NCBI GenBank assembly: GCA_041498975.1
Contig: JBGQJI010000026.1
Coordinates: 1-25,037 of the forward strand
Source: Candidatus Methylomirabilis sp.
GTDB taxonomy: Bacteria; Methylomirabilota; Methylomirabilia; Methylomirabilales; Methylomirabilaceae
DNA length: 25,037 nucleotides
Direction of reading: 5' to 3'
This document shows positions 10,581 to 25,037 of the stretch, in pieces. The position numbers and the translations under genes were made by a program. How positions within the stretch are numbered: position 1 is the first letter of the stretch; each line of letters starts with the position of its first letter. The notes beneath the pieces were generated by a model. It saw nothing but the letters and a program-made list of their open reading frames with translations. It had not been told where the DNA came from and ran no database searches.

Positions 10581-11804
10581 CTACCGAGCGGATAACTCAG
10601 CGACACGCAGGTCGCTGAACACCGCTTCCATTCCTTTCATGTCGAGATACAGTCCGACGTTGCCCCTCACCTCTGAGGTATCCTCGTAGGAACCGACATA
10701 CTTTCCGTTGACGTAGCACTCGATGGTGCGGCCCCGGATCTCCACTGCGAGGCGGTTCGTCGCGCCGTAACCCTGCTTGACAATGGGGTCGCTGGTCCAG
10801 TCAATCGGATAGATCCAGCTTCCATTCCGTTTCGCCAGCCTGTACGCCCCATTCGCGGACACCGCAAATGTGTAGAAGCGCTCACCCTTGGCCGGGCGGC
10901 CGAACTTCAGCCCAACAGCGCCCGCCTGATCGCCCTTTCGGAGTCGCACCGATACCTCGATCTGGACCCGGTCATGAAGATAGCCCACCTTTAAGAGGTT
11001 GAACTCGCACGTGCCCCGCGGCGCCACGTTTTCAACGCTCAGACCCCCTTCGCTGTACGCCGCTTTGCACGCCCCGCTGGTTCCCTCTTCCCAGTTTCGC
11101 CGCGATCGGAAATCGTCTTCGAAAAGCACCTTTCCTGATCTGGTGGCCTCCCTGGTGATGGCCTTGTCTGCCGGCGCGGCGGGGGGTTGTCCGTTGACGC
11201 GGGTCCAGCGGGAGGTGCCCCACGGACCTGTCGTCTCGATCGAGTGAGAACCAAGAATCCGATAGGTCCCCCCCTCGACCTGATGCGCCATTGTGGTCCA
11301 AGTCCATTGACCGCCCTTCGCTTGGAACCGACCCTTCTCTGACCGCCGACCGTCCGGCGATGACACGCTCAGCCAGTAGTCGCCGGCCGCGCTGATCCCC
11401 CAGAGGAGGTCCGACGTCACGCCCTTGGCCGGGTCGGTGATGCTGGTCCTCCAAGTCCCGACCAGCACAGGATCTACGGTGGCCGGGCCAGACTCGCGCG
11501 CCATTCGGCTCCGGTCGGCGACCGCACGATTGCGATCATTCGCTAGCGGTACGCTCGACGGGTCGATGGCAAATGAGCGGCGCGCCCCCTCCAGATCGCT
11601 CCGCAACCATGGGCCCTTCTTCTCGAGCAGGCCAAGGTCGAAGCGAATGTCGGCACCACTCTGTCCCGGCAGCGGCAGCAATGCCCCAAAGGTCCTGCCA
11701 TGGTCGACCCGTTCGAAGGCAGGCGCCCTCCCCCAAAAGTTCCCGGACCTCGGAGCCACCAGCGCAAGGAGGAAGGTTACACCAACAACCAGGTTCGCAA
11801 TCAT
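10581..11804 (-). CDS. Exported hypothetical protein with a beta-rich middle domain and a C-terminal DUF1080/concanavalin-like domain
   Basis: Hydrophobic N-terminus; LVGTWRTS strand motif; VLFEDDF...NRLAVEIRG..I..YVNGK.V...GNVGL...FSDLRV pattern. Confidence 0.7.
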   Translation of the reverse strand: MIANLVVGVTFLLALVAPRSGNFWGRAPAFERVDHGRTFGALLPLPGQSGADIRFDLGLLEKKGPWLRSDLEGARRSFAIDPSSVPLANDRNRAVADRSRMARESGPATVDPVLVGTWRTSITDPAKGVTSDLLWGISAAGDYWLSVSSPDGRRSEKGRFQAKGGQWTWTTMAHQVEGGTYRILGSHSIETTGPWGTSRWTRVNGQPPAAPADKAITREATRSGKVLFEDDFRSRRNWEEGTSGACKAAYSEGGLSVENVAPRGTCEFNLLKVGYLHDRVQIEVSVRLRKGDQAGAVGLKFGRPAKGERFYTFAVSANGAYRLAKRNGSWIYPIDWTSDPIVKQGYGATNRLAVEIRGRTIECYVNGKYVGSYEDTSEVRGNVGLYLDMKGMEAVFSDLRVAELSAR

Positions 11805-11976
11805 CGGACCCTCCGTGTCAGCTCCCGACGCCTCGAAATCCCAACCCTCGGGTCAGGCCAGTCGTGTCCACCGGTTACGCGATCGCCGCTCATCCCTCCG
11901 CTGTACCCAGCCATAGACTTTTCACGTCCCACCGCCGAAAGGCCGGGCAGACCAGGGGGCGCGGCATATCGGCGGA

Positions 11977-12063
11977 ATCACCACTCTTCCCTGGACAGTC
12001 CCGCGGCCACTGGCGCCAAGCCTTTCAACAATCGCCACCTTTATCCCAGGACAGTCCCGCAGC
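11977..12063. repeat. Imperfect ~32-bp direct repeat with a palindromic GGACnGTCC core
   Basis: ATCACCACTCTTCCCTGGACAGTCCCGCGGC versus ATCGCCACCTTTATCCCAGGACAGTCCCGCAGC; cores start at 11993 and 12049. Confidence 0.6.
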
Positions 12064-12129
12064 TTCCTGCAGATCGTACACCAAGGTGGGCCTGGAGGCA
12101 ATTCTTTAGCGGTTCCGCCCTGATTCGAC

Positions 12130-12159
12130 TTGACAGGCATTGAGGCTTTCTGCTATACA
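12130..12159 (+). promoter_or_regulatory. Sigma70-type promoter upstream of riboswitch 1
   Basis: TTGACA (12130-12135), 18-nt spacer, extended -10 TGcTATACA; the predicted start site falls just before the aptamer. Confidence 0.65.
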
Positions 12160-12169
12160 GGCTGGTAGA

Positions 12170-12235
12170 TAGAGGCGATGGAGTTCGTCGCGTAAACTAT
12201 CCCGACGTGATACTCGGGATTGATAACTCCTACTG
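12170..12235 (+). ncRNA. Fluoride riboswitch (crcB motif) 1
   Basis: GGCGATGGAGTTCGTC-gcgTAAACt-ATCCCGA/TCGGGAT-TGATAACTCCTAC. P1 GGCG/CGTC, P2 of 7 bp, pseudoknot GGAGTT(12180-85)/AACTCC(12225-30). Fits the known consensus. Confidence 0.93.
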
Positions 12236-12266
12236 AAGCGTTCCTTTGGTAGGAGTTTTTGTTTTT
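12225..12266 (+). terminator. Riboswitch 1 expression-platform terminator
   Basis: 14-bp stem AACTCCTACTGAAG/CTTTGGTAGGAGTT (2 G-U pairs), 5-nt loop, then TTTGTTTTT; its 5' arm is the pseudoknot strand. Confidence 0.9.
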
Positions 12267-12282
12267 CGAGGGGTTGGTCAGA

Positions 12283-13191
12283 ATGGATGGCGGTGCCAAG
12301 GCAGCTCGTTCCAAATCCGTGAGCTACTTCGAGCTGCTGGACGCGTTCAAGGAGGAAGGCTGCCCGGTCTGCCGACTCCTGCTCAAGTGGAGTCGCTTAT
12401 ACCTAGACTCGCTCTTTTACGAATACGTCAATGACGTCGGGGTCCGCAGCCGCCTTCGTGATTCTCATGGCTTCTGCAACTGGCACACCTGGATGGCTGC
12501 CAGCATTGACAACAGCCAGTCGGGGATCGCCATCATCTACGAACACCTGCTCAAGGATCAAATTGAGAGGTTTCAGGACGCACTGAGGTTCATCAAGCCT
12601 AGGTATTGGTGGGGGCGACTCAGGGGAAAGTGGTTCCGAGTCAAGGGCAAGCCACCGATTTTCGCTCAACGGAATCAAAGATCACCATGCCCGGCATGCG
12701 AGCGCCTGGATCAGTTCTTTGAACCTGACCTGACCGACACGCTCCTGTCCTCTTTGGCCGACCCGGAGTTCGCCGACGGCTTCGTCGTTTCCTTCGGCCT
12801 CTGCCTGCCTCACCTCTACAACACCATGGTCACAGGCCAAGAGCATCCCAATCTTCCCCTTCTCATGGAGCTTCAACTGAAGAAATTGGGAACGCTTCGC
12901 GGTGAACTCGGTGAATACATCCGGAAATTAGATTACCGGTTCATGGCCGAACCGCGCGGAGAAGAGGCCACTTCCTGGCGACGCGTCATGGAGCTATTCG
13001 TCGGCAAGCCAGAGGTTTTTGGCTCGGACCGCCGGACGTGGGACACGACAGCGGGCCGACAGCCAACGCCATCATCCACAACGCCCCTCCAAGGTCAGGG
13101 TCTGGGACCGGCCAAGAGGAAGGGGGAAAAGGCTGAACAGTTCCGCAAGGACCTTCTGCCCCCGCGCAAAGGGATGTGGGAGGGTTCTTGA
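12283..13191 (+). CDS. DUF6062-like protein 1
   Basis: CPVC...YEYVND..VR..LR.S.GFCNWH, CPAC...GLCLPH, EL.EYIRKLDYRF..EP.GEE..SW.R. ATG 12283 follows GAGGGG; the track's TTG start lies inside the terminator tail. Confidence 0.8.
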   Translation: MDGGAKAARSKSVSYFELLDAFKEEGCPVCRLLLKWSRLYLDSLFYEYVNDVGVRSRLRDSHGFCNWHTWMAASIDNSQSGIAIIYEHLLKDQIERFQDALRFIKPRYWWGRLRGKWFRVKGKPPIFAQRNQRSPCPACERLDQFFEPDLTDTLLSSLADPEFADGFVVSFGLCLPHLYNTMVTGQEHPNLPLLMELQLKKLGTLRGELGEYIRKLDYRFMAEPRGEEATSWRRVMELFVGKPEVFGSDRRTWDTTAGRQPTPSSTTPLQGQGLGPAKRKGEKAEQFRKDLLPPRKGMWEGS

Positions 13192-13227
13192 AAGTGCCTT
13201 CCTTCACACCGACAACAAGGAGCTCCT

Positions 13228-14409
13228 GTGGAGAACGCATGGATTGGAATGGTGATGGGCCTGCTGATCCTTCTGGCAAGCATGGCCTCGGTGGAACTGG
13301 GGATCTCGGTCGCCCTGATCGAGATCGGTTTTGGCATCGTCGCCGGGAACTTTTTGGGTCTGCACTCCACCCCATGGATCGACTTTCTGGCCAGCTTCGC
13401 CAGCATCGTGCTGACCTTCCTGGCCGGCGCCGAGGTCGATCCCGACCTCATGCGGGAGAAGCTGAAAGAAAGCGCCCTTATCGGTGGACTCTCCTTCCTT
13501 CTGCCGTTCTTTGGAACGTGGGCCTTTTGCTACCTCGTTGTGGGCTGGACCAAGGCGGCATCGCAAATCGCTGGCACCGCACTTTCGACCACCTCGCTCG
13601 CCGTGGTCTATGCCGTGCTGGTCGAGACGGGACTCACCAACGCGCCGATTGGCAAACTGATCATGGCATCAACGTTCGTAACAGACTTTGGAACCGCGCT
13701 CGCCTTGAGCCTCCTGTTCATCCGGCCTACCTGGTGGATCGTCCCATTCATCCTAGTCTCTGCAGCGTTGATCGTCATCATGCCCCGAATGAAACCCTGG
13801 TTCTTTTCGCGCTACGGCAAACGAGTCATCGAGCCCGAAATTAAAGGCGCCTTTGCCGCGCTTCTTGTCTTGATGTACTTCGCTCATCTGGCTGAAAGCC
13901 ATGCTGTCCTGCCGGCCTTCATCCTCGGCCTGGCGGTCGCGAAGATTTTTCACAGCCACAGAGAGGAACAACGGCGCTTCCGAATCGTGACCTTTGCCAT
14001 GCTGACGCCGTTCTTTTTTACCAAGTCCGGGATGAACGTGTCATTGGGTCTCGTGTGGGCCAACACCGGGCTACTGCTGATGCTACTTGCAGTGAAGCAA
14101 ATCACGAAGTTCATCGGCGTTTACCCGTTTGCGAAACGTTATGTCGCGGAACACGCGATGTACACCACCCTCCTGATGAGCACGGGCCTAACCTTTGGCA
14201 CCATCGCTTCGCTTTTCGGGCTGAACGCCGGCATCCTCACCAAAGCACAGTTCTCAGTTCTGGTCACGGTCGTCATCCTGAGCGCCATTATTCCCACAAT
14301 GATTGCCCAGCGCTATTTCGATCCCAGACGTCCCCTCAAACGGGCCGAGGAAGCGCCAAGGGCTGCTATGATTAGGCCCCCTCAACTGCTCGAGGAAAAA
14401 GGGGCGTAA
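13228..14409 (+). CDS. Cation:proton antiporter (CPA2 / Na_H_Exchanger family)
   Basis: About 12-13 hydrophobic segments; FLAGAEVD, LSTTSLAVV, FVTD, PFFF..SGM motifs; AAGGAG RBS with GTG start. Confidence 0.88.
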   Translation: MENAWIGMVMGLLILLASMASVELGISVALIEIGFGIVAGNFLGLHSTPWIDFLASFASIVLTFLAGAEVDPDLMREKLKESALIGGLSFLLPFFGTWAFCYLVVGWTKAASQIAGTALSTTSLAVVYAVLVETGLTNAPIGKLIMASTFVTDFGTALALSLLFIRPTWWIVPFILVSAALIVIMPRMKPWFFSRYGKRVIEPEIKGAFAALLVLMYFAHLAESHAVLPAFILGLAVAKIFHSHREEQRRFRIVTFAMLTPFFFTKSGMNVSLGLVWANTGLLLMLLAVKQITKFIGVYPFAKRYVAEHAMYTTLLMSTGLTFGTIASLFGLNAGILTKAQFSVLVTVVILSAIIPTMIAQRYFDPRRPLKRAEEAPRAAMIRPPQLLEEKGA

Positions 14410-14832
14410 ATGTACCAGAGGATCCTCGTCGCCTACGACGGCTCCGAGGGCTCGAAGAAGGCCCTTCGAGCCGGCATTAAGCTGGCCAAGCTGCTGGAGG
14501 TGGACTTGTATTCGATTTCTGTAGCGGAGGGGCTTCCCTACTTTGCCGCGACCGTGGGCGAGGTCGAAGAGGTCAAGGACGACGTCGAGGCGTTTTTCAA
14601 GAAGATCACCAAGGAGGCCTGGGACGAGGCAGCGCTTCAGGGCGTGAACCTCCACACAACGGTCCTCCCCGGCCACGAGGTGGAGACCATCATCACCTTC
14701 GCGAAGGAAGGCCGGTTTGATCTATTGATCGTCGGATTCGTGGGTCATTCCAATGTGTTCGGGCGCATTATGGGAGGCACCACCCAAAACCTGAGCCGAC
14801 TGTCTCCCTGCACGGTGATGATCGTCAAATAG
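14410..14832 (+). CDS. Universal stress protein (UspA family)
   Basis: MYQRILVAYDGSEGS..AL, DLLIVG..G......IMGGTT..L....PCTVMIVK; starts immediately after the antiporter stop. Confidence 0.93.
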   Translation: MYQRILVAYDGSEGSKKALRAGIKLAKLLEVDLYSISVAEGLPYFAATVGEVEEVKDDVEAFFKKITKEAWDEAALQGVNLHTTVLPGHEVETIITFAKEGRFDLLIVGFVGHSNVFGRIMGGTTQNLSRLSPCTVMIVK

Positions 14833-14886
14833 AACCGATCCAGGGAACACCTCATGCTGATGTGGGTGAAGAATGAGGGGAGATAG

Positions 14887-15234
14887 ATGCCAATTGATAG
14901 GCCATGGCTGCTATTTTCCGAGATTGCTATCAATCTTGAGCAAGACGAATCGGGTGTCTACGAGTTAGGGAACAGGACTGGCAGTGTCATATACCTAGGG
15001 AGTTCAAGCAGAGTGCGCCAACGGCTGAAAGAACACCTGAATGCTTGGAGCACGACGTGTCTCAAAAAGCACACAGCGAAGTACCGGGTAGAATACACGT
15101 CAAAGTTCAAGGCTAGAGAATGGGAGTTATATGACCAGCACGTGAGGTCACATAGCAAACCTCCTAGATGTAATGCCGCGCGCGAATTTCCGTCCTCCAG
15201 ACTTTCTGAAGCTGAAATCAAATCAGGACACTAG
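14887..15234 (+). CDS. Stand-alone GIY-YIG nuclease-like protein
   Basis: GVY-x10-YLG, then VRQRLKEH and a downstream ARE.EL helix. Confidence 0.7.
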   Translation: MPIDRPWLLFSEIAINLEQDESGVYELGNRTGSVIYLGSSSRVRQRLKEHLNAWSTTCLKKHTAKYRVEYTSKFKAREWELYDQHVRSHSKPPRCNAAREFPSSRLSEAEIKSGH

Positions 15235-15248
15235 CCGATTAAGACATC

Positions 15249-15800
15249 ATGGAAACCTCGCAGCAAGCCCGGGCCGTGGCGATCACGCTGCAGCCCTGTA
15301 TCTATCGGGCCGAACGTCCCTCTCAAAGTGCTGACGGCGGTTCCGGAGGAGTCGCTCTGACCTGCAAGGCCATGGGAGGGAAGAGCCTCGGCCGAAAAGG
15401 CCAGGACGATGTCCGGATCGCCGAGATCTGTAACCCTTGTACCATCCCTCAGGAGGCCGCGTTCCGGCCTTGCCTTTTCCTGGTCCCGATCAAAGTAGAA
15501 CGGAAACGGGTTCTCAAAGACTACTTTACTTGCCGCTGGTTGTACCGGCTTCGTCCCGACCGACCGGATGAGAAGACCCGATACATGTGCGCCGGCTGCC
15601 CTTTCTGGTTCCCAATGCCACCGGTCTCGCTGGTCCGCGACTTGGAGCAGGCTGCGAAGAAGATGATCGACTACCATGCACAAATCTGGGAGAACCCTCC
15701 GCCCCCGCCACCCAAGCTCATCTGGATTCAGAGGCCGCCGGCACCGAGAACGCTATGGCAACGGACACGCGATTCGCTGATTCGGTGGTGGGGATGGTGA
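15249..15800 (+). CDS. Hypothetical Cys-rich protein (8 Cys)
   Basis: Co-oriented with short gaps to both neighbours; two C..C..CxxC modules and a Pro-rich then Trp-rich C-terminus. Confidence 0.65.
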   Translation: METSQQARAVAITLQPCIYRAERPSQSADGGSGGVALTCKAMGGKSLGRKGQDDVRIAEICNPCTIPQEAAFRPCLFLVPIKVERKRVLKDYFTCRWLYRLRPDRPDEKTRYMCAGCPFWFPMPPVSLVRDLEQAAKKMIDYHAQIWENPPPPPPKLIWIQRPPAPRTLWQRTRDSLIRWWGW

Positions 15801-15831
15801 CCCACCGGGAAAGCGAGAGGGAGTGGGAGGT

Positions 15832-16584
15832 ATGAGCTTTGCCCTGCTTTCCATCGAGCTGGAGGACGCGCTCCAAAGCCAGGGGTGCGCCGTTTGCCGC
15901 CTCGTCCAGGAGGGTGACCAGCGTTACATTCGTCACTTCCTCTGGGAAGGGAAAAACGAGGGCCATATGCTCCTCAGGCTCAAACGCTCGCTCGGCCTCT
16001 GCCACCATCATGCTTGGTTGCTGGCCGATACCGAAGACCTGGAGTTCAAGGATGGGTTGGGAACAGCGACCCTGTACGATTGGCTGCTTGACATCGCGCA
16101 TGAGACCCTCCGGAAGGCGCGGGAGACCCGCACCATCGAGGCGGCGAAACGACTGGCTACATCGTTGCACCCACAACCCCCCTGCCCTGCATGCGCCATC
16201 CGCCGCGAGTTTGCGGAGACGGTCCTGTGGGGCCTGCAGCAATTTCTCGCGCCCGTGGGAGGTCATGAGACGATCAGGAACCTGTATGCCAAGTCAGGCG
16301 GCCTTTGCTTGCCTCATCTCCTGGCTCTCCTCCGGATGACCTCCTTCCCGGAGGTCGTGCAGCTATTGCTGGAGGTGCAGGAGCGGACGCTGGCATCCCT
16401 CCTCGCGGAACTGGAACTGTTCCAGCGCAAGCACCGGGTCGGCGAGCAAGCACCGATCGGCAAGGAACAGGACGCGTGGAACCGCGCCCTCGATCTGCTC
16501 GCTGGACGCCTAAACGGCGCCCGACCACCGGGTGTTGCGAACTCACAGGTGAATCGCACATCGAGGATGGTGGCTGAAGGCTGA
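15832..16584 (+). CDS. DUF6062-like protein 2
   Basis: CAVC...GLCHHH, CPAC...GLCLPH, EL..F.RKH...E.DAW.RA; GGAGG RBS just before ATG 15832. Confidence 0.8.
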   Translation: MSFALLSIELEDALQSQGCAVCRLVQEGDQRYIRHFLWEGKNEGHMLLRLKRSLGLCHHHAWLLADTEDLEFKDGLGTATLYDWLLDIAHETLRKARETRTIEAAKRLATSLHPQPPCPACAIRREFAETVLWGLQQFLAPVGGHETIRNLYAKSGGLCLPHLLALLRMTSFPEVVQLLLEVQERTLASLLAELELFQRKHRVGEQAPIGKEQDAWNRALDLLAGRLNGARPPGVANSQVNRTSRMVAEG

Positions 16585-16616
16585 AGTGCCGGTGCCCGCA
16601 TCTCGCCGGTATCCTG

Positions 16617-17354
16617 ATGTCGCTGCACTTACTCTATAGCCGCTGGAGAGCGGCACTCACCCAGGCGGGGTGTCCGGCCTGCCGGATCATGGAGGCTGTG
16701 GCCCGGAGGTACATGATCACGCTCGTCCGTGAAGGGAAAAGCCACGACGAGGTGTACATACGGATTCAGAGGGCGTGGGGCTTTTGTGAGGGGCACGGCC
16801 GAATGCTGAAAGGGATCAGCCCGGCGAAGCTTGGTGATGGGATGAGTCCGGCGCGACTGTGCTCCTGGCTATTAGGGGCCCTGAGTATGCGGCTGTCCAA
16901 GGCGTTGCAGTCCACCAGGACCTCGTTGTCGCCGAGGATTCAAGGGCGCCGATGGCTCAGGAGAAAGAGACCTCCTGGCGAAGGAATCGCCAAACAGCTC
17001 GAAGTCGAAGGGCGCTGCCCGGCTTGTGAAGATCTCACCAGGTATGAGCGAAGCCTGTTATGGGGCCTTCAGCGCCTTCTTTCAGAGACCAAAGGGGAAG
17101 AGACGATCCGACACTTATATCATGCCTCTCATGGTCTCTGCTTCCCGCACCTCCGCCTCGCTCTCGAAGAGGCGGAGGAACCGTCGTCGGTCGATCTGCT
17201 CCTCCAGGTTCAAGAGCAGGCACTCTCCGACCTTTCCTGGAACCTGAAGGAGTATCTTCGGAAGCATGATTACCGCTACAGGCTTGAGCCGATGACGCAG
17301 GCAGAAGCCACGAGTTGCCTTCGGGCAATCGCCTTGTTCGCGGGGGAGCGATAG
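16617..17354 (+). CDS. DUF6062-like protein 3
   Basis: CPAC...GFCEGH, CPAC...GLCFPH, LKEYLRKHDYRY..EP. Confidence 0.8.
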   Translation: MSLHLLYSRWRAALTQAGCPACRIMEAVARRYMITLVREGKSHDEVYIRIQRAWGFCEGHGRMLKGISPAKLGDGMSPARLCSWLLGALSMRLSKALQSTRTSLSPRIQGRRWLRRKRPPGEGIAKQLEVEGRCPACEDLTRYERSLLWGLQRLLSETKGEETIRHLYHASHGLCFPHLRLALEEAEEPSSVDLLLQVQEQALSDLSWNLKEYLRKHDYRYRLEPMTQAEATSCLRAIALFAGER

Positions 17355-17483
17355 GTGAGCCTCCGCGTGATCGCCGACCCGCGCATCATTCCGGCGGCGC
17401 TGGAGATTGTCACACGGAAGCCTTTGGACCACCCAATCTGTGAGTGTAGTGGTTGTTGTGCGGCGAGGGTTGTTTGCGGATGA
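17355..17483 (+). CDS. Possible 42-aa Cys-rich small protein (below the ORF-track cutoff)
   Basis: GTG directly after the upstream TAG, with a GGGGAG RBS; MSLRVIADPRIIPAALEIVTRKPLDHPICECSGCCAARVVCG; its stop overlaps the next start as ATGA. Confidence 0.35.
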   Translation: MSLRVIADPRIIPAALEIVTRKPLDHPICECSGCCAARVVCG

Positions 17484-17956
17484 ACGCGCAAGATGGTCAG
17501 CCGGTGCTGCTCAATCCCTCGCAGAAGAATTCACTTCGCATCAGCTTGCTGCTGGTGGAGAGGGGGATGCTCGAAATGGAGCGCCTCCTGTCCGCTGGCG
17601 AATACCATGGGATCCTGTTCCGGATTACGGATGATCTTGGTGACGACACGAAGACAGCCATTGGGCAGCTTATCCACGAGGTTCGGGGGGTCATCCGGGA
17701 GCTGAGGGACCGGTTTCAACTTGACCTGGAGGCTGAAAGAACGAGTCGCGCCATCTTCGGGAAGGCTCCTTTGCTCTGGGAGATCGTGACAGATAGCGAC
17801 ACCAGCCGCCTGCGAGGATACGGACAGGTCCAGCCAGGTTTGAAAGAGATCCTGGACCCCTCAATCGAGCGACTGAGTCAATCCTTGCTGAGAATGCATG
17901 GCTTGGTTTCTAACAACGATAGAGCGTTCACGCGGGATCGGGGCGGTGAACAGTAG
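17480..17956 (+). CDS. Hypothetical all-helical protein with an RLRGYG motif
   Basis: LN.SQKNSLRISL...RLRGYG; amphipathic helices; ATG at 17480. Confidence 0.7.
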   Translation: MNAQDGQPVLLNPSQKNSLRISLLLVERGMLEMERLLSAGEYHGILFRITDDLGDDTKTAIGQLIHEVRGVIRELRDRFQLDLEAERTSRAIFGKAPLLWEIVTDSDTSRLRGYGQVQPGLKEILDPSIERLSQSLLRMHGLVSNNDRAFTRDRGGEQ

Positions 17957-17974
17957 AATTCTCTCGGTGAGCAG

Positions 17975-18037
17975 ATTAGGCGATGGGGTTCGCCATTAAC
18001 CATCCCGATGGCCACGTCGGGATTAATGACCCCTATC
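17975..18037 (+). ncRNA. Fluoride riboswitch (crcB motif) 2
   Basis: GGCGATGGGGTTCGCC-ATTAACC-ATCCCGA/TCGGGAT-TAATGACCCCTAT. P1 GGCG/CGCC, pseudoknot GGGGTT(17985-90)/GACCCC(18028-33). Confidence 0.94.
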
Positions 18038-18070
18038 AAAGGTTCCAGCCCTTGATAGGGGTTTTCTTTT
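18028..18070 (+). terminator. Riboswitch 2 expression-platform terminator
   Basis: Perfect 11-bp stem ACCCCTATCAA/TTGATAGGGGT followed by TTTCTTTT; overlaps the pseudoknot strand. Confidence 0.9.
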
Positions 18071-18084
18071 GAGAGGTTTTGGCC

Positions 18085-18474
18085 GTGAGCAGGAGGCGTC
18101 CAACTGCCGACGAGCGCAACGCCATTGGGGTGTACCTCAGCGGTCGCGGGGCGCATGATCTCGCCATCAGCGAACTGAAGAAAGCAAGGCGGCTAGCTCC
18201 AGGGTCGCCAACCGTCCACTACAACTTGGCGGCCGCCTACTTCGGGAAGAGGGATTTCGATCAAGCCTTCTCGGCTCTCAAGGTGGCCCTGGACCGGGAT
18301 CCCCAACATCTGAATGCCCACCTCCTGCTCGGGCTCGTGCTTGAGGCCAAGGGGTTGTACGATGAGAGCCGCCGGGAGCTTCAATGGGTCGTCGAGCAAG
18401 ACCCCGTGAGCAGAAGCGGCCAAGAAGCTAAGGAAGCGCTGGTCAATCTTGAATCGAGAATGGCCAGACGGTAA
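18085..18474 (+). CDS. Tetratricopeptide repeat protein
   Basis: Three TPR-like units (NAIGV..., VHYNLAAAYF....FDQA, AHLLLGLVL...G.YDES); GAGAGG RBS 8 nt before GTG 18085. Confidence 0.85.
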   Translation: MSRRRPTADERNAIGVYLSGRGAHDLAISELKKARRLAPGSPTVHYNLAAAYFGKRDFDQAFSALKVALDRDPQHLNAHLLLGLVLEAKGLYDESRRELQWVVEQDPVSRSGQEAKEALVNLESRMARR

Positions 18475-18670
18475 GGGGAGATCCCCAACGAACACGAGCT
18501 GTCCCGTGAGCAGATGCTGCCGAAGAGGTGCTTGTTATGTGCACCTGCCGCCGCGTTGCGCTCACCCTCCGCTCGGCCTCGACAACTGGAGAAAGGAATG
18601 TGATAGTCGATCATCAAACCGATCCGGCTGCACGTAGATCGACGGAACCTGACATGATAATGAGGCCAGG

Positions 18671-19960
18671 ATGGCACTAATTTCCAAGATTAGTGCGCGT
18701 GAGGTGCTCGATTCCCGCGGGTACCCCACCATCGAAGTCGAGGTTGTGCTCGAGGACGGTGCGCTTGGCAGAGCTTCGATTCCCGCAGGAGCCTCCACCG
18801 GCAAAATGGAAGCCATGGAGCTTCGCGACGGTGAGAAAGGACGATATCTAGGCAAAGGTGTCAGACGAGCGGTCACGATCGTGACCGAGGTTCTGGCCCT
18901 GAAACTCCTGGGGCTGGAGGCGCACGATCAACCGCTCATCGACAGAACGATGATCGACCTGGATGGGACTCCAAACAAATCGAGATTGGGGGCCAATTCG
19001 ATCCTGGGGATTTCCCTTGCGGTCTCAAAGGCCGCTGCCACGTCTGACGGCGTTCCCCTCTTCAAATACCTCGGAGGTCCGGACGCAAAGGTCATGCCGG
19101 TCCCGATGATGAACGTGATCAATGGGGGACGACACGCTGATAATACCCTGGACTTTCAAGAGTTCATGATTGTCCCACTTGGGGCGCCTCGGTTTTCGGA
19201 CGCCTTGCGGGCAGCGGTTGAGACCTTCCACTCCTTAAAGGAGGTTCTGAAGAGTGCGGGATACGGGACGACAGTCGGCGATGAAGGTGGATTCGCACCG
19301 CGCCTCCGAACGCACGATGAGGCCATCGAATTGATCCTCGCTGCGATCACGAAGGCCGGATTCAAGGCGCCAGGCGAGGTAGCCATTGCCCTCGATCCAG
19401 CCGCCAGCGAATTTTTCAACGACGGTGTGTACAGATTCGAGAAGTCCGACCGATCGAGAAGAGACGCCGAGGGCATGGTAAGGCTGTATGATGACCTCGT
19501 TCGCCAGTATCCGATCGTCTCCCTTGAAGACGGGCTGGCAGAGACCGATTGGCGGGGGTGGGAGATCTTAACGAGGGAGCTTGGGGACAGGCTTCAACTG
19601 GTGGGGGATGACATTTTTGTCACCAACCCCGCCCTCATCGCTGAAGGCATCCGGAAAAAGGTCGCCACTGCGGTCCTCATCAAATTGAACCAGGTTGGGA
19701 CCGTGACGGAAACCCTGCAAGCCGTGCGAGTTGCCCAAGGCGCCGGATATGGGGTCGTGATCTCCCACCGCTCGGGCGAGACCGAGGATACCGCCATCGC
19801 GGACTTCGCGGTGGCCTGCCAAAGCGGACAGATCAAGGCAGGGTCTGCATGTCGTACAGACCGCGTCGCCAAATACAATCAACTGCTCCGCATCGAGGAG
19901 CAGTTGGGACCGGAAGCGGTGTTCCTTGGGCCCAGGATATTCTCCAGGTATGTTGCCTGA
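18671..19960 (+). CDS. eno: Enolase (phosphopyruvate hydratase)
   Basis: [62 protein letters not shown] all present. Confidence 0.97.
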
Positions 19961-19974
19961 GAGGATGATGGTGC

Positions 19975-21675
19975 ATGATCTTCTACTGTCCCTCGTGTTG
20001 GCGTGAGGTGCCCGAAACTGTCCGGGTGTGTCCACATTGCATGGTGGATGTGGAGCGCCTCACCCAAGAACAAGATTACGTCCAGAAGCTGATCGCTGCC
20101 CTTGACCATCCCGAGCCCCAGACACCCATCCGGGTGGCCTGGATTCTCGGCTTCCGGAAGGAAACGCACGCGGTCGCCGATTTAGCCCGGCTCGTCCGTG
20201 AATCAGATGATCCATATATCGTCGAGGCAGCCGTGGAGGCGCTCGGGAGGATCGGGGATCCGGCGGGCCTGGCGGCCGTCCGATTTGCCTCGCAGCACGG
20301 GGGGGTGAGGGTCCGCGAGAGGGCCAAGTATGCCATCGATCTCATTGAGGGGATACCATCCGTCCCTCACGAGGAGCCGACCTCAAAGCGGGAGCAATCA
20401 ACCAACCGAACTAGCGATCCCCTCCCACCCGTACGACTTGATCCGACGGAGTCGGCCCGATCCGAAGGGTGGCTGAACCGGAACGTTGTGGGGATGGGGG
20501 TGACCAGCCTTCTGTCCGATGCATGCCACGAGATGGCCACCGCTGTCCTTCCAAGCTTCCTGACGAGCATCGGTGCGCCGGCGGCGGCTCTTGGCGTGAT
20601 TGAGGGCGTGGCGGACGCCACCAGCAGCTTCGTCAAGTTGGGGGCCGGCTGGTACTCTGACCGAATCGGCCATCGCAAGGGGATCTGCATCCTAGGCTAC
20701 TTCCTGACCGGCGTCTCCAAGGCGCTGTTCGCGTTCGCTATCACCTGGCCCTTGGTGCTCGTCGGCCGAGTCATCGGCTGGTTCGGCCGCGGCATTCGCG
20801 GGCCCCTGCGGGATGCCATGCTAGCGGAGTCTGTCCCGCCGGAAGCGAGGGGAAAAGCCTTCGGATTCCACAGGGCCGGCGACACGTTGGGCGCCATCAT
20901 CGGCCCGCTCCTTGCGGTCGGAGTCATCGAAATGCTCCAGGCCCGTGGTGTGCAGGACTCGTCGGCCCCGTTTCGGACGGTCTTCCTCCTCACGCTGATT
21001 CCGGGGTTGGCCTCGGTTCTCACGATGGCAAGCCTGGTCCGGGAACGGCGCCGCCTGCCCAATCACGACCTTCGGTTCTGGGCCTCGCTCAGGGAACTCC
21101 CAAAGAGGTTCCGCCGCTTCCTTCTGGGCGTCGGCCTCTTCGGCCTCGGCGATTATGCCCACACTTTCTTGATCCTCGCCGCCACCACCCTCCTTACCCC
21201 TGCATACGGGCTCGTCGAAGCCGCGCAGATCGCCGCGCTCCTCTATGTGTGGCGGAACGTCCTCTATGCCGCCGCCTCTTATCCGGTGGGCGCCCTGAGC
21301 GACCGTGTGGGACGACGAGGTCTGCTCGCTCTCGGCTATCTCCTTGGGGCCGTGACCGCCGGCGGCTTCGGGCTTGCGTTTCTCATCCCTCTTCCCGCTC
21401 TCTCGAAACTGGCCGTGCTGGTTTGCCTCTTTGCGACGGCAGGCATCTATATTGCCATGGAGGACACGCTTGAAGGAACGCTGACAGCCGACCTGACTCC
21501 ACGAGAAACCTGGGGTCTCTCGCAAGGCGTCCTCGGCACGATCAATGGGGTCGGCGACTTCGTTGCCAGCCTTGTTGTTGGGATCTTGTGGTCTGCCGTC
21601 TCTCCCATGGCGGCCTTTGGCTACGCTGCCCTTCTCTCTCTCCTCGGCACCGCGCTCATCTATCGACTACGATGA
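19975..21675 (+). CDS. MFS transporter with N-terminal Zn-ribbon and HEAT-repeat domains
   Basis: CPSC-x10-CPHC, then HEAT units (VEAAVEALGRIGD), then an MFS body from about residue 165 with motif A twice (GWYSDRIGHRK, GALSDRVGRR) and RGKAFGFHRAGD. Confidence 0.88.
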   Translation: MIFYCPSCWREVPETVRVCPHCMVDVERLTQEQDYVQKLIAALDHPEPQTPIRVAWILGFRKETHAVADLARLVRESDDPYIVEAAVEALGRIGDPAGLAAVRFASQHGGVRVRERAKYAIDLIEGIPSVPHEEPTSKREQSTNRTSDPLPPVRLDPTESARSEGWLNRNVVGMGVTSLLSDACHEMATAVLPSFLTSIGAPAAALGVIEGVADATSSFVKLGAGWYSDRIGHRKGICILGYFLTGVSKALFAFAITWPLVLVGRVIGWFGRGIRGPLRDAMLAESVPPEARGKAFGFHRAGDTLGAIIGPLLAVGVIEMLQARGVQDSSAPFRTVFLLTLIPGLASVLTMASLVRERRRLPNHDLRFWASLRELPKRFRRFLLGVGLFGLGDYAHTFLILAATTLLTPAYGLVEAAQIAALLYVWRNVLYAAASYPVGALSDRVGRRGLLALGYLLGAVTAGGFGLAFLIPLPALSKLAVLVCLFATAGIYIAMEDTLEGTLTADLTPRETWGLSQGVLGTINGVGDFVASLVVGILWSAVSPMAAFGYAALLSLLGTALIYRLR

Positions 21676-21724
21676 GGTCCTCCGAAGGGGTCAACAGGCA
21701 GCGCGCTCGATACGGACCACTGCG

Positions 21725-22747
21725 ATGAACCCGAGAAAACTTGTCAAGAAGCTTGACGACCTTCGCCAGAATCTGGATGCTCAGCTTCAACTCATCATGC
21801 TAGGCGAGAAGGCAGTGGAACCACTGGTCGAGTTCCTGCTGTCAGCGCCAGCGCTTCACGCGGAACCACGATGCCTGGCGGCCGAGGCACTGGGTGCCAT
21901 CGGCGGGGAGAGGGCAATTGACGGCCTGATCAAAGCGTTGACTATCAATGATGTCCATGCCTGCGACCCAAGTATCCGCCTCTCGGAGGAAGTGGTCCGC
22001 AGTTGCGCGGCCGCGCAGCTCGGGCGATTGGGCGCCCGGAGAGCCATTGAGCCTTTGCTGGACGCGCTGGAGCGGCTTCATCTCGTTGGAGCGGCCGAGG
22101 CACTCGCCAGGCTCGGGGAGACACGAGGCATCCCCTTGATGATCGATCGACTCGAGGATCCATTTATCAGGGTGAGGATCGGCCAAGCGCTTCTGGCCTT
22201 CGGCCAAGAGGGGCAGATTCCGTTGATCGAAACCCTGTCAGTTAGGCGCTACGTCCAGGAAGAGGAATCGAGAGGCAGCCGAGAGCGACGGGCGGAGGCC
22301 ACGCGGTTGCTGGGTCTCCTGAAATCACAAAAGACTATCGAGCCTCTCATGGAGCTGCTTGTCGATGAGGCTCGGGAGGTTCGGCTGCACGCGGCGCTGT
22401 CACTTTGCGACCTTATGAGTACCGATGACCACCGGCTCGAGCAGGCGCTGCCAGTCCTGGTCAGGGACTCGGAGTGCGGCGGGCTTGCCACAAGGGACCG
22501 GGTGTTCGACGCGCTGATCAAAATGGCTTCCAAGGCGCTCCCGCATCTCCTCGAAGCTCTGGAAGATTCAGACCTTTCCGGCGACACGAAAGACTTGATG
22601 ATCGAGGTCCTGGCTCACATCCCGGATCCTCGTGTTCCCGGCGCATTGCTCTCTCTGCTCTCAGGCCGACAGAGATCACTTCATTGGAAGGCCCGATGGG
22701 CTCTGCAGCGGCTGGGACGAACCTTCGAACCTTATCGCCCTCATTGA
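21725..22747 (+). CDS. HEAT-repeat (PBS lyase-like) protein
   Basis: Repeated AAEALGAIG, AAAQLGRLG..RAIEPLL and VRLHAALSL units. Start ATG 21725 chosen to avoid a 130-nt overlap with the MFS gene. Confidence 0.85.
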   Translation: MNPRKLVKKLDDLRQNLDAQLQLIMLGEKAVEPLVEFLLSAPALHAEPRCLAAEALGAIGGERAIDGLIKALTINDVHACDPSIRLSEEVVRSCAAAQLGRLGARRAIEPLLDALERLHLVGAAEALARLGETRGIPLMIDRLEDPFIRVRIGQALLAFGQEGQIPLIETLSVRRYVQEEESRGSRERRAEATRLLGLLKSQKTIEPLMELLVDEAREVRLHAALSLCDLMSTDDHRLEQALPVLVRDSECGGLATRDRVFDALIKMASKALPHLLEALEDSDLSGDTKDLMIEVLAHIPDPRVPGALLSLLSGRQRSLHWKARWALQRLGRTFEPYRPH

Positions 22748-22781
22748 TGAACACACTGAACCGCGCCTGAGATAAGGGGAC

Positions 22782-23360
22782 GTGAATCCTACGCCGCTGA
22801 TCCAACTCGCTTCAGATCTCGACACTTGGTTCTTTATGGGTGTGAATGTGGGGCTCTCTAACCCGTTCCTGGACAAGGTCATGCCGTGGGTAACGGAAAA
22901 ACACCACTTCGTCGCGCCCCTGGTCATTCTATTGCTCGCGTTATTGTTGTGGGGAGGACAACACGGCAGGCAGACGCTTCTCCTTGCCCTGATCCTCGTG
23001 ATCCTGACAGATCAGACTGGAAACCTCCTGAAACTCTTGCTGGCGCGAGTGCGCCCCTGTCACGTGGTACCGACAGCCCATCTCCTCGTAGGCTGCACGG
23101 CATCGGGCTCGTTCCCCTCCAACCATGTGTTGAATCTGTTTGCCCAATCCACGCTCCTGGCACTTCAGTGGGGATGGCCTGCGAGCCCCGCTTTCCTCGT
23201 CGCGGCGATCGTGGCTTATTCGCGCGTCTATGTAGGAGTCCATTATCCGGGCGACGTCATCGGAAGCGCCGGGATCGGGATAGTGTGGGGTTGGCTAGTA
23301 TCTCGTGGCGCCCTGGAGGTCAATCGTCGCTGGGTGAAATCCACGGTGAGAGACCCATGA
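22782..23360 (+). CDS. PAP2-family membrane phosphatase
   Basis: C1 K-x6-RP, C2 PSNH, C3 SRVYVGVHYPGD; hydrophobic segments. Confidence 0.92.
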   Translation: MNPTPLIQLASDLDTWFFMGVNVGLSNPFLDKVMPWVTEKHHFVAPLVILLLALLLWGGQHGRQTLLLALILVILTDQTGNLLKLLLARVRPCHVVPTAHLLVGCTASGSFPSNHVLNLFAQSTLLALQWGWPASPAFLVAAIVAYSRVYVGVHYPGDVIGSAGIGIVWGWLVSRGALEVNRRWVKSTVRDP

Positions 23361-24169
23361 TCAATGACACCACCTACTGGACACAGCTTGGCGAGAGTAT
23401 CAAGCTGAACAGGAATGCCGGGTACGATCCCTCCACAATCCTGATCTTTCTCATGGAGACGAACCGGGCCTGTCCCGTCTGTTTTATCCTGCGGGACCGA
23501 GAGTTCTACGTGCTCTGTCAGTTTCAGTACGACGTCATTCATCAGTCGGAAATAAGAGACGCATTTCGATACGAGGGCACCCTCTGTAACCACCATGCCT
23601 GGTTCATGAAAGCGCTAGCGACCCCTGTGACGAGTGGTGGACTCTTCCATGCTTTGATCACCGAGACCATGGGCCGACTCGACGAGAGTTCAGCCATCGT
23701 CCGAAATATCGTATACGATCGCCAACAGCCAGAAGTCATCGCAAAGCTCCTAGAGGGTGAACGCCGCTGCGTCGCGTGCGAAGACCATGCAGCAATGGAA
23801 ACTCATTTGATACAGGAAATGAGCAGGCTCTTAGGAGATCCTTCGTTTCGAACCACGTATCGGACCTCCTGGGGGATCTGCCGGCCACACGTAGCGAGTG
23901 TTCTTGCGCGGGTTGAGGATCCGCACCTCAAGGCTTTCGTACTCCAGGCCTACCTAGCACAGCTCAGGCGCCAAGCACATGAACTGGAGGAGCTTGAACG
24001 GCAGACTGCCGCGAAGGTGCGCGATCTGGGGGAGCTTGCCCAGGCTCACGCGCGGGCTGTCGAGCGCTGGGCGGGCATGCGCGGTTTGGCATTGCCGCGA
24101 GAAGAGCCACCCCCTCCCCTTCGAAGCCGGCTCTTGAAGTCCCCTGAGCGTGGTGAGGGCAACCATTGA
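23357..24169 (+). CDS. DUF6062-like protein 4 (divergent)
   Basis: CPVC...LCNHHAW and CVAC...GICRPH; ATGA overlap with the PAP2 stop fixes the start at 23357. Confidence 0.72.
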   Translation: MINDTTYWTQLGESIKLNRNAGYDPSTILIFLMETNRACPVCFILRDREFYVLCQFQYDVIHQSEIRDAFRYEGTLCNHHAWFMKALATPVTSGGLFHALITETMGRLDESSAIVRNIVYDRQQPEVIAKLLEGERRCVACEDHAAMETHLIQEMSRLLGDPSFRTTYRTSWGICRPHVASVLARVEDPHLKAFVLQAYLAQLRRQAHELEELERQTAAKVRDLGELAQAHARAVERWAGMRGLALPREEPPPPLRSRLLKSPERGEGNH

Positions 24170-25037
24170 TGGGGAGGATGATGGAATTCACCAATCATCA
24201 TAGTGTAGGTAGCGGGGCGGACTTGCAAGACCGTTTGGGACGAACCCGTGATGAGCTACTTAATATTCTCGACACTATCGGATCATTGGTCGATAAGGCG
24301 GGATTGCCGCCCTACCCAGCTTTAGCGGCTGCGGATCGACTCCGCCACAACAGGTTCGACATCGTCGTCCTGGGCCAGTACAAACGGGGGAAGACGACCT
24401 TCATCAATGCCCTCCTTGGTGAGGACCTCCTTCCCACCGCCATCGTCCCATTGACCAATATCGCCACGCGGGTGCGCCACGCGACCCTCCCGTCTGCGCG
24501 CGTGACCTTTCTGGACGGGCGGTTTCAGGAGATCTCACTTCAAGAGCTAGCGCTCTACACCACGGAGAAAGGCAACCCCGGTAACGCCAAGAGGGTGCTC
24601 CTGGTGGAGGTCGAGTTCCCCGCGACCGCCCTTCGGGACGGGACGATGGTCACGGACACGCCCGGAATCGCCTCGATCTTCGAGCAGAACACCCGGGCGG
24701 CGATGGAGTATATCCCCCAGGCAGACGCCGCGATCTTCCTGGTGAATGCGGACCCGCCGATCAGCGAGGCGGAACGGGCCTTCCTCAAAGAGGTTCGCCC
24801 GTATGTGGCAAAGCTCTTCTTTGTGCAAAACAAGATCGACCAGGTGAGTCCGGAGGATCAAGAAGAGTCCCTTGCTTTTACGCGTACCGTAATCGAAGAG
24901 ACAATGGGCGAAGGCGAGATCGTCATCTACCCCGTCTCGGCTCGCTTGGCCCTGGAAGCCAAGCTGGCACAAGACGCGACAAAGCTTGGCCTAAGCCGAT
25001 TCGACCAGTTCGAGCGGGATCTCCATGGTTTTCTCCA
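24169..25037 (+). CDS. Bacterial dynamin-like GTPase, 3'-truncated at the window edge
   Basis: Hand-translated open frame not in the ORF track: G1 VVLGQYKRGKTTFINALLG, G2 LPTAIVPLT, TEKGNPGN, G3 DTPG, G4 NKID, PVSAR. Start at 24169 (TGATG overlap), 24178 or 24181. Confidence 0.92.
   Translation, partial: MGRMMEFTNHHSVGSGADLQDRLGRTRDELLNILDTIGSLVDKAGLPPYPALAAADRLRHNRFDIVVLGQYKRGKTTFINALLGEDLLPTAIVPLTNIATRVRHATLPSARVTFLDGRFQEISLQELALYTTEKGNPGNAKRVLLVEVEFPATALRDGTMVTDTPGIASIFEQNTRAAMEYIPQADAAIFLVNADPPISEAERAFLKEVRPYVAKLFFVQNKIDQVSPEDQEESLAFTRTVIEETMGEGEIVIYPVSARLALEAKLAQDATKLGLSRFDQFERDLHGFL

Follow-up and report, generated by a model that had tools for sequence, protein, structure and literature searches.

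The window analyzed here, i.e., the whole stretch of 25,037 nucleotides of Candidatus Methylomirabilis sp. DNA, carries a fluoride riboswitch (switch 2) inside a gene array that already has one (switch 1) upstream. This raises the question of whether transcripts that have passed switch 1 are gated a second time by switch 2, or whether switch 2 heads a transcription unit of its own. All features assigned below lie on the + strand.

With the gathering score of the Rfam family RF01734 (34 bits) as the criterion for a fluoride riboswitch call, the aptamer of switch 2 is recognized at 17970–18042 with 43.3 bits (E 4.3e-9, model positions 1–64 of 64) and that of switch 1 at 12165–12239 with 38.3 bits (E 1.9e-7, full model 1–64); switch 2 is thus the higher scoring of the two, and the second riboswitch proposed by the first-pass annotation is real. 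These are the only RF01734 matches in the whole 2.68-Mb, 84.9%-complete, 241-contig assembly, and a looser RF01734 scan of 11500–25037 at E values up to 1 gave no third switch. In the alignment to the model, helix P1 of switch 2 is formed by 17979–82 and 17991–94, P2 by 18002–08 and 18017–23, and the GGGGTT/GACCCC pseudoknot by the 5′ strand 17985–90 and the 3′ strand 18028–33; the pseudoknot of switch 1 is GGAGTT/AACTCC at 12180–85/12225–30. P1, P2, the conserved GAUGG.GUU loop and the UGAUGAC.CCUA 3′ tail are all present in the consensus alignment, and switch 2 shares the invariant columns common to 12 switches of relatives, with every invariant position of the lineage kept. As an RNA, switch 2 is unexceptional within the well-known RF01734 family.

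Switch 2 is combined with an intrinsic terminator at 18029–18070, composed of the stem 18029–39/18052–62 with an inner 3-bp hairpin and a U-tract at 18062–70, such that 18029–18062 is followed by UUUCUUUU. Its folding energy is −22.7 kcal/mol (z = −4.8), and none of 200 shuffled sequences folds equally well; a general terminator scan recovered it as a partial match. The corresponding element of switch 1, terminator and U-tract, spans 12225–12267 and has a 14-bp stem at 12225–12257 (−18.6 kcal/mol, z = −4.4). In both switches the 3′ strand of the pseudoknot is also the 5′ arm of the terminator (in switch 2, 18029–33 lies inside the terminator stem), as is typical of fluoride switches of the transcriptional ON type. 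Sequence and predicted structure thereby support switch 2 as a genuine second fluoride switch of the terminator ON type. Computed side by side, the terminator energies are −22.0 kcal/mol for switch 2 versus −17.1 kcal/mol for switch 1, and the pseudoknot energies −8.8 versus −6.3 kcal/mol, while the stretch from pseudoknot to U-tract is similar in both. Given that the decision windows are similar, and both pseudoknot and terminator are stronger in switch 2, no difference in threshold between the two switches is predicted from their structures, and the steeper or higher threshold suggested in the first-pass annotation is conjectural.

Comparison of the two aptamers reveals where they have been allowed to differ. 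The P2 stem reads ATCCCGA/TCGGGAT without any difference between them, as had been noted in the first-pass annotation, which had also claimed that the pseudoknot covaries, that the 3′ arm of the terminator tracks the change, and that the structure is therefore selected. All three points are borne out. The changed pseudoknot pair is A12182–T12228 in switch 1 versus G17987–C18031 in switch 2, and the pairing position in the terminator 3′ arm is altered accordingly, being A12254 in switch 1 versus G18060 in switch 2, so that all three positions change together in a three-way compensatory manner (A/U/A versus G/C/G). Among 38 distinct switches of the phylum, the variable pair is A–U in 31, G–C in 5 and G–U in 2, with A–C never observed; hence, the G–C pair of switch 2 is a recurrent state that preserves pairing, and the wobble intermediate is also represented. 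The latter is found in the switches of loci L061 and L062 (genomes G058 and G053), where a GGGG loop is combined with an ACUCC tail, as expected for an intermediate of the compensatory path. The pattern supports selection on the switch 2 sequence for both alternative structures.

The description of switch 2 as a sister copy of switch 1 is not supported; each of the two resembles switches from other genomes of the genus as much as, or more than, it resembles its partner. The switch 1 aptamer core is 75% identical to that of switch 2 and 82, 81, 81 and 79% identical to those of four same-genus switches, all of which sit in an ARD-crcB/DUF190 locus; the best matches of the switch 2 core are G001 (77%), L064_2 (76%) and switch 1 (75%). 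With compared cores of about 55 nt, these percentages differ by 2–4 positions and constitute weak evidence either way, such that sisterhood of the two switches is still possible from their sequences. The shared P2 stem does not distinguish them, as ATCCCG..CGGGAT is a trait of the genus type and only the seventh pair (A–T) is private to the two switches of the window. A pair of evident common origin is found in the same genus: genome G007 has two fluoride switches 1.5 kb apart (L015, 8372–8445 and 9892–9965) with 93% core identity and nearly identical promoters; here, a promoter–switch unit ahead of a VTT-domain gene and crcB has recently been duplicated. Also in this genus, G007 and G010 have switches at the ARD locus, with crcB (G007) or DUF190 (G010) downstream.

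All 14 genes between 12259 and the window end point in the same direction as the switches and are separated by short gaps, those between the eight proximal genes measuring 0–98 nt. The proximal genes encode DUF6062-a (12259/12292–13191), a CPA2-type cation/H+ antiporter (13228–14409), Usp (14410–14832), a GIY-YIG-like protein (14887–15234), hyp183 (15249–15800), DUF6062-b (15823–16584), DUF6062-c (16617–17354) and hyp167 (17453–17956); six are assigned to families by Pfam and NCBIfam, and the two hypothetical proteins have conserved homologues in related islands. Alignment of hyp167 with homologues of 164–193 aa from four related islands gives 21 invariant columns, identifying a conserved protein family and, hence, coding sequence immediately upstream of switch 2. 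The possibility of a tandem riboswitch, i.e., two aptamers in one 5′ UTR, is ruled out by the eight ORFs and 5.8 kb between the switches. Behind switch 2, a Shine–Dalgarno sequence (GAGAGG, 18071–76) precedes the gene for a TPR protein, which starts at GTG 18085 or TTG 18079 and runs to 18474, and this gene is followed by those for a second enolase (18671–19960), a HEAT-MFS transporter (19975–21675), a HEAT-repeat protein (21545–22747), DUF6062-d (22886–24169, with the true start probably later) and a dynamin-like GTPase (24166 to the window end), the distal genes together spanning 18671–25035. The Pfam assignments agree with the distal gene set, enolase to dynamin, that had been named in the first-pass annotation.

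Several of the island's products merit comment. The genome encodes another enolase on contig C6, with which the one in the window shares 66% identity, and all four DUF6062 genes of the genome fall in the window. DUF6062 (PF19538) proteins share invariant CxxC...C..H...CxxC...GxCxPH motifs, which suggest metal binding; a search of the DUF6062 profile against the PDB gave no significant match (best E 0.073), and a full-text search returned no paper naming the family. The GIY-YIG/DUF7508 protein between Usp and hyp183 (14887–15234, 115 aa) shows weak similarity to group-I-intron endonucleases and may be a mobile insertion, since it has no counterpart in the related islands compared. No gene for CrcB (PF02537) or CLC (PF00654) was found in the 84.9%-complete assembly, which does not imply absence from the genome; the organism may rely on the antiporter and MFS transporter of the island, or its channel gene may just have escaped assembly.

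The two switches differ in their promoters. Promoter 1 (12130–12159) consists of a −35 box TTGACA (12130–35), an 18-nt spacer and a −10 box TATACA (12154–59), scores 10/12, and stands at the same place relative to P1 as in 31 of the 38 phylum switches. At switch 2, a −10-like TAGAAT (17954–17959) overlaps the TAG stop codon of hyp167 (17954–17956), and 22 nt lie between this stop and the first G of P1 (17979), the spacing originally reported. The hexamers 16–18 nt upstream of TAGAAT match TTGACA at one of six positions at most, which confirms the earlier remark that a well-spaced −35 is missing; neither a −35 box at 16–19-nt spacing nor a TG extension is present, and the best promoter-like combination in the zone upstream of switch 2 scores 7/12. 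The hexamer itself matches TATAAT at five of six positions and is the same as the −10 of G036_B. The distance from its end to the aptamer core motif GCGATGG, which begins one base inside P1, is 20 nt, compared with 15 nt in switch 1 and 8–27 nt in relatives. When the region upstream of switch 2 was aligned with those of switch 1 and the four genus switches, homology was confined to the sequence starting at the leader AGAT(T)AG, and none was seen for a switch 2 promoter. TAGAAT is possibly the relic of a former promoter.

How unusual such a promoter region is was assessed in a census of the 38 distinct phylum switches, collected from the loci of relatives with the Rfam model and a motif regular expression. 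Three spurious matches to the expression (window minus strand 20920, L063 4341 and the overlapping L057 6567) were excluded, as were the duplicate locus L072, which is on the same contig as L064, and G030, whose 22-bit match is not switch-like and fails the motif pattern. Scoring a single hexamer under one sigma-factor model, TTGAC starts 36–62 nt upstream of GCGATGG in 31 of 38 switches versus 1.7% of 20,000 positions drawn at random from these loci, and these boxes stand 16–19 nt from a −10-like hexamer. TTGAC is absent in seven, three of which have near-consensus boxes and a good −10 (TTGTCC-17-CATAAT, TTGCTC-17-TAGTTT and GTGACC-18-TATACT). A recognizable −35 is lacking in switch 2 of the window, G052 (L053 6580), G044 (L055 4606) and L074 2115. 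The switches of G052 and G044 are orthologous, each immediately follows a DUF6062 gene of the same orientation (with 2 nt between stop codon and P1 in G052), and the islands that contain them begin with a promoter and switch. These internal switches (L053 6570–6659, L055 1–82), placed between DUF6062-a and the antiporter gene, are a structural variant with a much longer, apparently branched P2 insert and a core of about 71 nt; no run of at least four T follows the variant in G052, and the G044 contig ends within the switch.

Whether transcripts from promoter 1 can reach switch 2 depends on what lies between them. A terminator scan found no convincing terminator from promoter 1 to switch 2; the + strand terminator-like matches within 12259–17956 have stems of 5–7 bp and poor tails and lie inside genes, the count for the scanned region being 17 versus 11.2 ± 3.0 in shuffles. 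With no recognizable sigma-70 −35 box, no convincing terminator and a co-directional array, polymerases that get past switch 1 should meet switch 2. Judged from these features, it is rather probable that switch 2 acts as a fluoride-sensitive second checkpoint, within the transcription unit, on transcripts that have passed switch 1. Transcription would start at promoter 1 and pass switch 1 only when fluoride stabilizes the aptamer pseudoknot; the polymerase would then run through eight genes and meet switch 2 just after the hyp167 stop. In the absence of fluoride, 18028–33 would be taken into the terminator hairpin and the transcript would end at the U-tract, at about 18065–18070, while in its presence transcription would read on into the genes for the TPR protein, enolase, HEAT-MFS transporter, HEAT-repeat protein, DUF6062-d and dynamin-like GTPase. 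Distal expression would be the product of two ON probabilities, which would make the distal genes less leaky and their response steeper compared with the proximal ones. Here, we infer the read-through from promoter 1, the ligand response and the dose-response consequence. The arrangement probably originated when two modules of promoter plus switch were fused and the second promoter subsequently lost its −35 box.

A competing assignment is that switch 2 heads its own transcription unit, with a weak or non-canonical promoter in the 3′ end of hyp167, based on the −10 TAGAAT or on another sigma factor, and a start near 17966; there would then be two operons in one regulon, with little added by read-through from promoter 1. 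We consider this doubtful, although it is not without backing: TAGAAT has the five matches to TATAAT and the precedent in G036_B described above, its distance to the core falls within the range of relatives, eight of the 11 downstream switches in serial pairs have an own or near-consensus promoter, and in G054 a switch-TPR-hyp167 operon is headed by a TTGACT promoter. Against it stand the missing −35 at 16–19 nt and TG extension in a phylum where TTGAC accompanies 31 of 38 switches over a background of 1.7%, and the lack of a terminator ahead of switch 2, by which read-through would arrive even if a promoter exists. The double-checkpoint and own-promoter readings are not mutually exclusive. 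It is improbable that switch 2 is the relic of a rearranged module that still folds but no longer regulates, e.g., because its terminator is efficiently read through. Island modules are indeed shuffled between genomes and the −35 box seems lost; however, switch 2 has the higher Rfam score of the two and keeps all invariant lineage positions, the terminator 3′ arm has the G that corresponds to the G–C pair of its pseudoknot, and its terminator is strong (−22 kcal/mol) and carries a U-tract.

Least credible, and very nearly dismissible, is a misassembly in which two separate fluoride operons were joined at the junction hyp167–switch 2–TPR. The assembly is metagenomic and split into 241 contigs, and a 583-nt contig (record 7 of run X5) matches the window only at 18051–18537, with 18 differences and with its first 96 nt unlike the window; this contig may come from a related strain that diverges ahead of the terminator 3′ arm, or its end may be chimeric. 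The junction is, however, reproduced in a different sample, where a contig of 1389 nt (record 16 of run X6, not marked as a possible source) spans 17623–19000 with 0 differences, and record 31 of X8 covers 17510–17986. With respect to entry of polymerases further downstream, the gap between the TPR and enolase genes (18475–18670) is unusually long at 196 nt and contains, besides two short hairpins that lack U-tracts, a promoter-like site at 18579–18607 (TCGACA, 17 nt, TG-GATAGT), which is a consensus match only. Promoter-like sites number 2 versus 3.5 expected in shuffles; in related islands, the enolase gene closely follows its upstream gene. Based on its sequence, the site at 18579–18607 could bypass both gates for enolase and the genes beyond.

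The organization of related islands sets these readings in context. RF01734 is found in 41 of 151 genomes of the phylum (a tally that includes G216), and a sister family carries this gene set in rearranged order under one to four switches: dynamin, DUF6062-a to -d, the antiporter (72% identity), Usp, hyp183, TPR, hyp167, HEAT-MFS, HEAT and enolase. In G057, a single promoter and switch head the series from DUF6062-a through TPR, hyp167, DUF6062-d, -b and -c to enolase, demonstrating that one switch can serve the whole set, and in G054 (L056) promoter and switch head TPR-hyp167-DUF6062-d-HEAT-MFS-HEAT. Serial switches on the same strand within 12 kb occur in nine genomes (G000, G007, G036, G052, G055, G044, G054, G198 and G211), and the related islands, G000 aside, have 2–4 switches on one strand within 1–12 kb. 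The 11 downstream switches in these pairs comprise seven with TTGAC, one with TTGTCC and three without a −35 (switch 2 of the window, G052_2 and G044_2); the eight with TTGAC or a near-consensus box define a second transcription unit as the lineage norm. Several fluoride switches per island are common in the phylum, and most have their own promoters.

The crcB fluoride riboswitch (crcB motif) of Bacillus cereus is reportedly of the transcriptional ON type. Switch 2 resembles it in having P1, P2, a pseudoknot and a terminator that competes for the 3′ strand of the pseudoknot, and the cargo in the window is of kinds known for the RF01734 class (enolase, cation/H+ antiporter and Usp). Unlike a crcB-type switch, it stands 22 nt downstream of a gene, 5.8 kb within an array and without a −35, and unlike in a crcB-type system neither crcB nor CLC is present in the 85% of the genome that is assembled. 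The novelty of switch 2 is its arrangement and not the type of element. Tandem riboswitches for the same ligand occur in one leader for glycine and, in Bacillus anthracis, for TPP; the window would have in common with them two same-ligand sensors in series, for which a more switch-like response is expected if read-through takes place as proposed. In contrast to a tandem leader, the switches of the window are complete, each has its own terminator, and they are eight genes apart, by which proximal and distal genes would receive different input functions.

The closest known counterpart in terms of output is the operon of Enterobacter cloacae FRM, in which one fluoride riboswitch controls ppaC, uspA, eno, gpmA and crcB, according to the portion of the report consulted (PMC5533749). 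As described there, the operon gives two mRNAs, with induction of 120–177-fold for proximal and 8–16-fold for distal genes. The output proposed for the window is likewise two-tiered within one fluoride operon; however, tiering in E. cloacae FRM is attributed to a shorter second transcript, that portion of PMC5533749 reporting no second riboswitch, whereas the internal stop in the window would itself sense fluoride. No description of serial fluoride riboswitches was found in open-access papers and bioRxiv. What would matter is the wiring, i.e., two complete terminator switches for the same ligand on one polycistronic transcript; if they are serial, proximal and distal genes would obtain different dose-responses from one signal without a protein regulator. 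Furthermore, the switches constitute a natural related pair, with an A–U versus a G–C pseudoknot pair and a weaker versus a stronger terminator, for comparing kinetic thresholds.

A more elaborate interpretation, which we regard as unlikely but worth stating, is that of a fluoride defense island that works without CrcB or CLC-F and is wired as a two-checkpoint hierarchy, built around the four DUF6062 Cys/His-motif proteins and the dynamin-like GTPase. Switch 1 alone would admit the CPA2 antiporter, Usp and DUF6062-a, -b and -c at first fluoride, and switch 2 would re-test fluoride about 5.8 kb further on, such that the costly second tier, i.e., the replacement enolase, the HEAT-MFS transporter and the dynamin-like GTPase, would be made only at high or persistent fluoride. 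If true, a single operon would contain a naturally occurring riboswitch cascade with two checkpoints for one ligand.

The island connects DUF6062 with fluoride stress in a lineage whose present assembly yielded no gene for a fluoride channel. The family is present in 60 of 251 genomes of the phylum and in 0 of 19 other genomes of the genus. A search with a single DUF6062 protein yielded eight loci, of which only L064 has fluoride switches at the gathering score; a motif search of L063 and L065–L070 gave no credible switch (one pattern match in L063 was judged spurious). As DUF6062 occurs without a switch in the Rokubacteria loci L065, L066, L067 and L070, the family is not always switch-linked. 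Among the loci fetched, from about 20 genomes, DUF6062 is a frequent cargo of fluoride riboswitches in the phylum (L016, L053–L059, L064, L071 and L073–L075), with the switch directly upstream or one gene away, this gene being the dynamin-like GTPase; additional pairs of neighboring coordinates in the phylum-wide DUF6062 and RF01734 searches show the association as well. The closest database records of DUF6062-a belong to metagenome-assembled genomes named Methylomirabilota or Rokubacteria, together with two labeled Baltobacteraceae and Acidoferrum.
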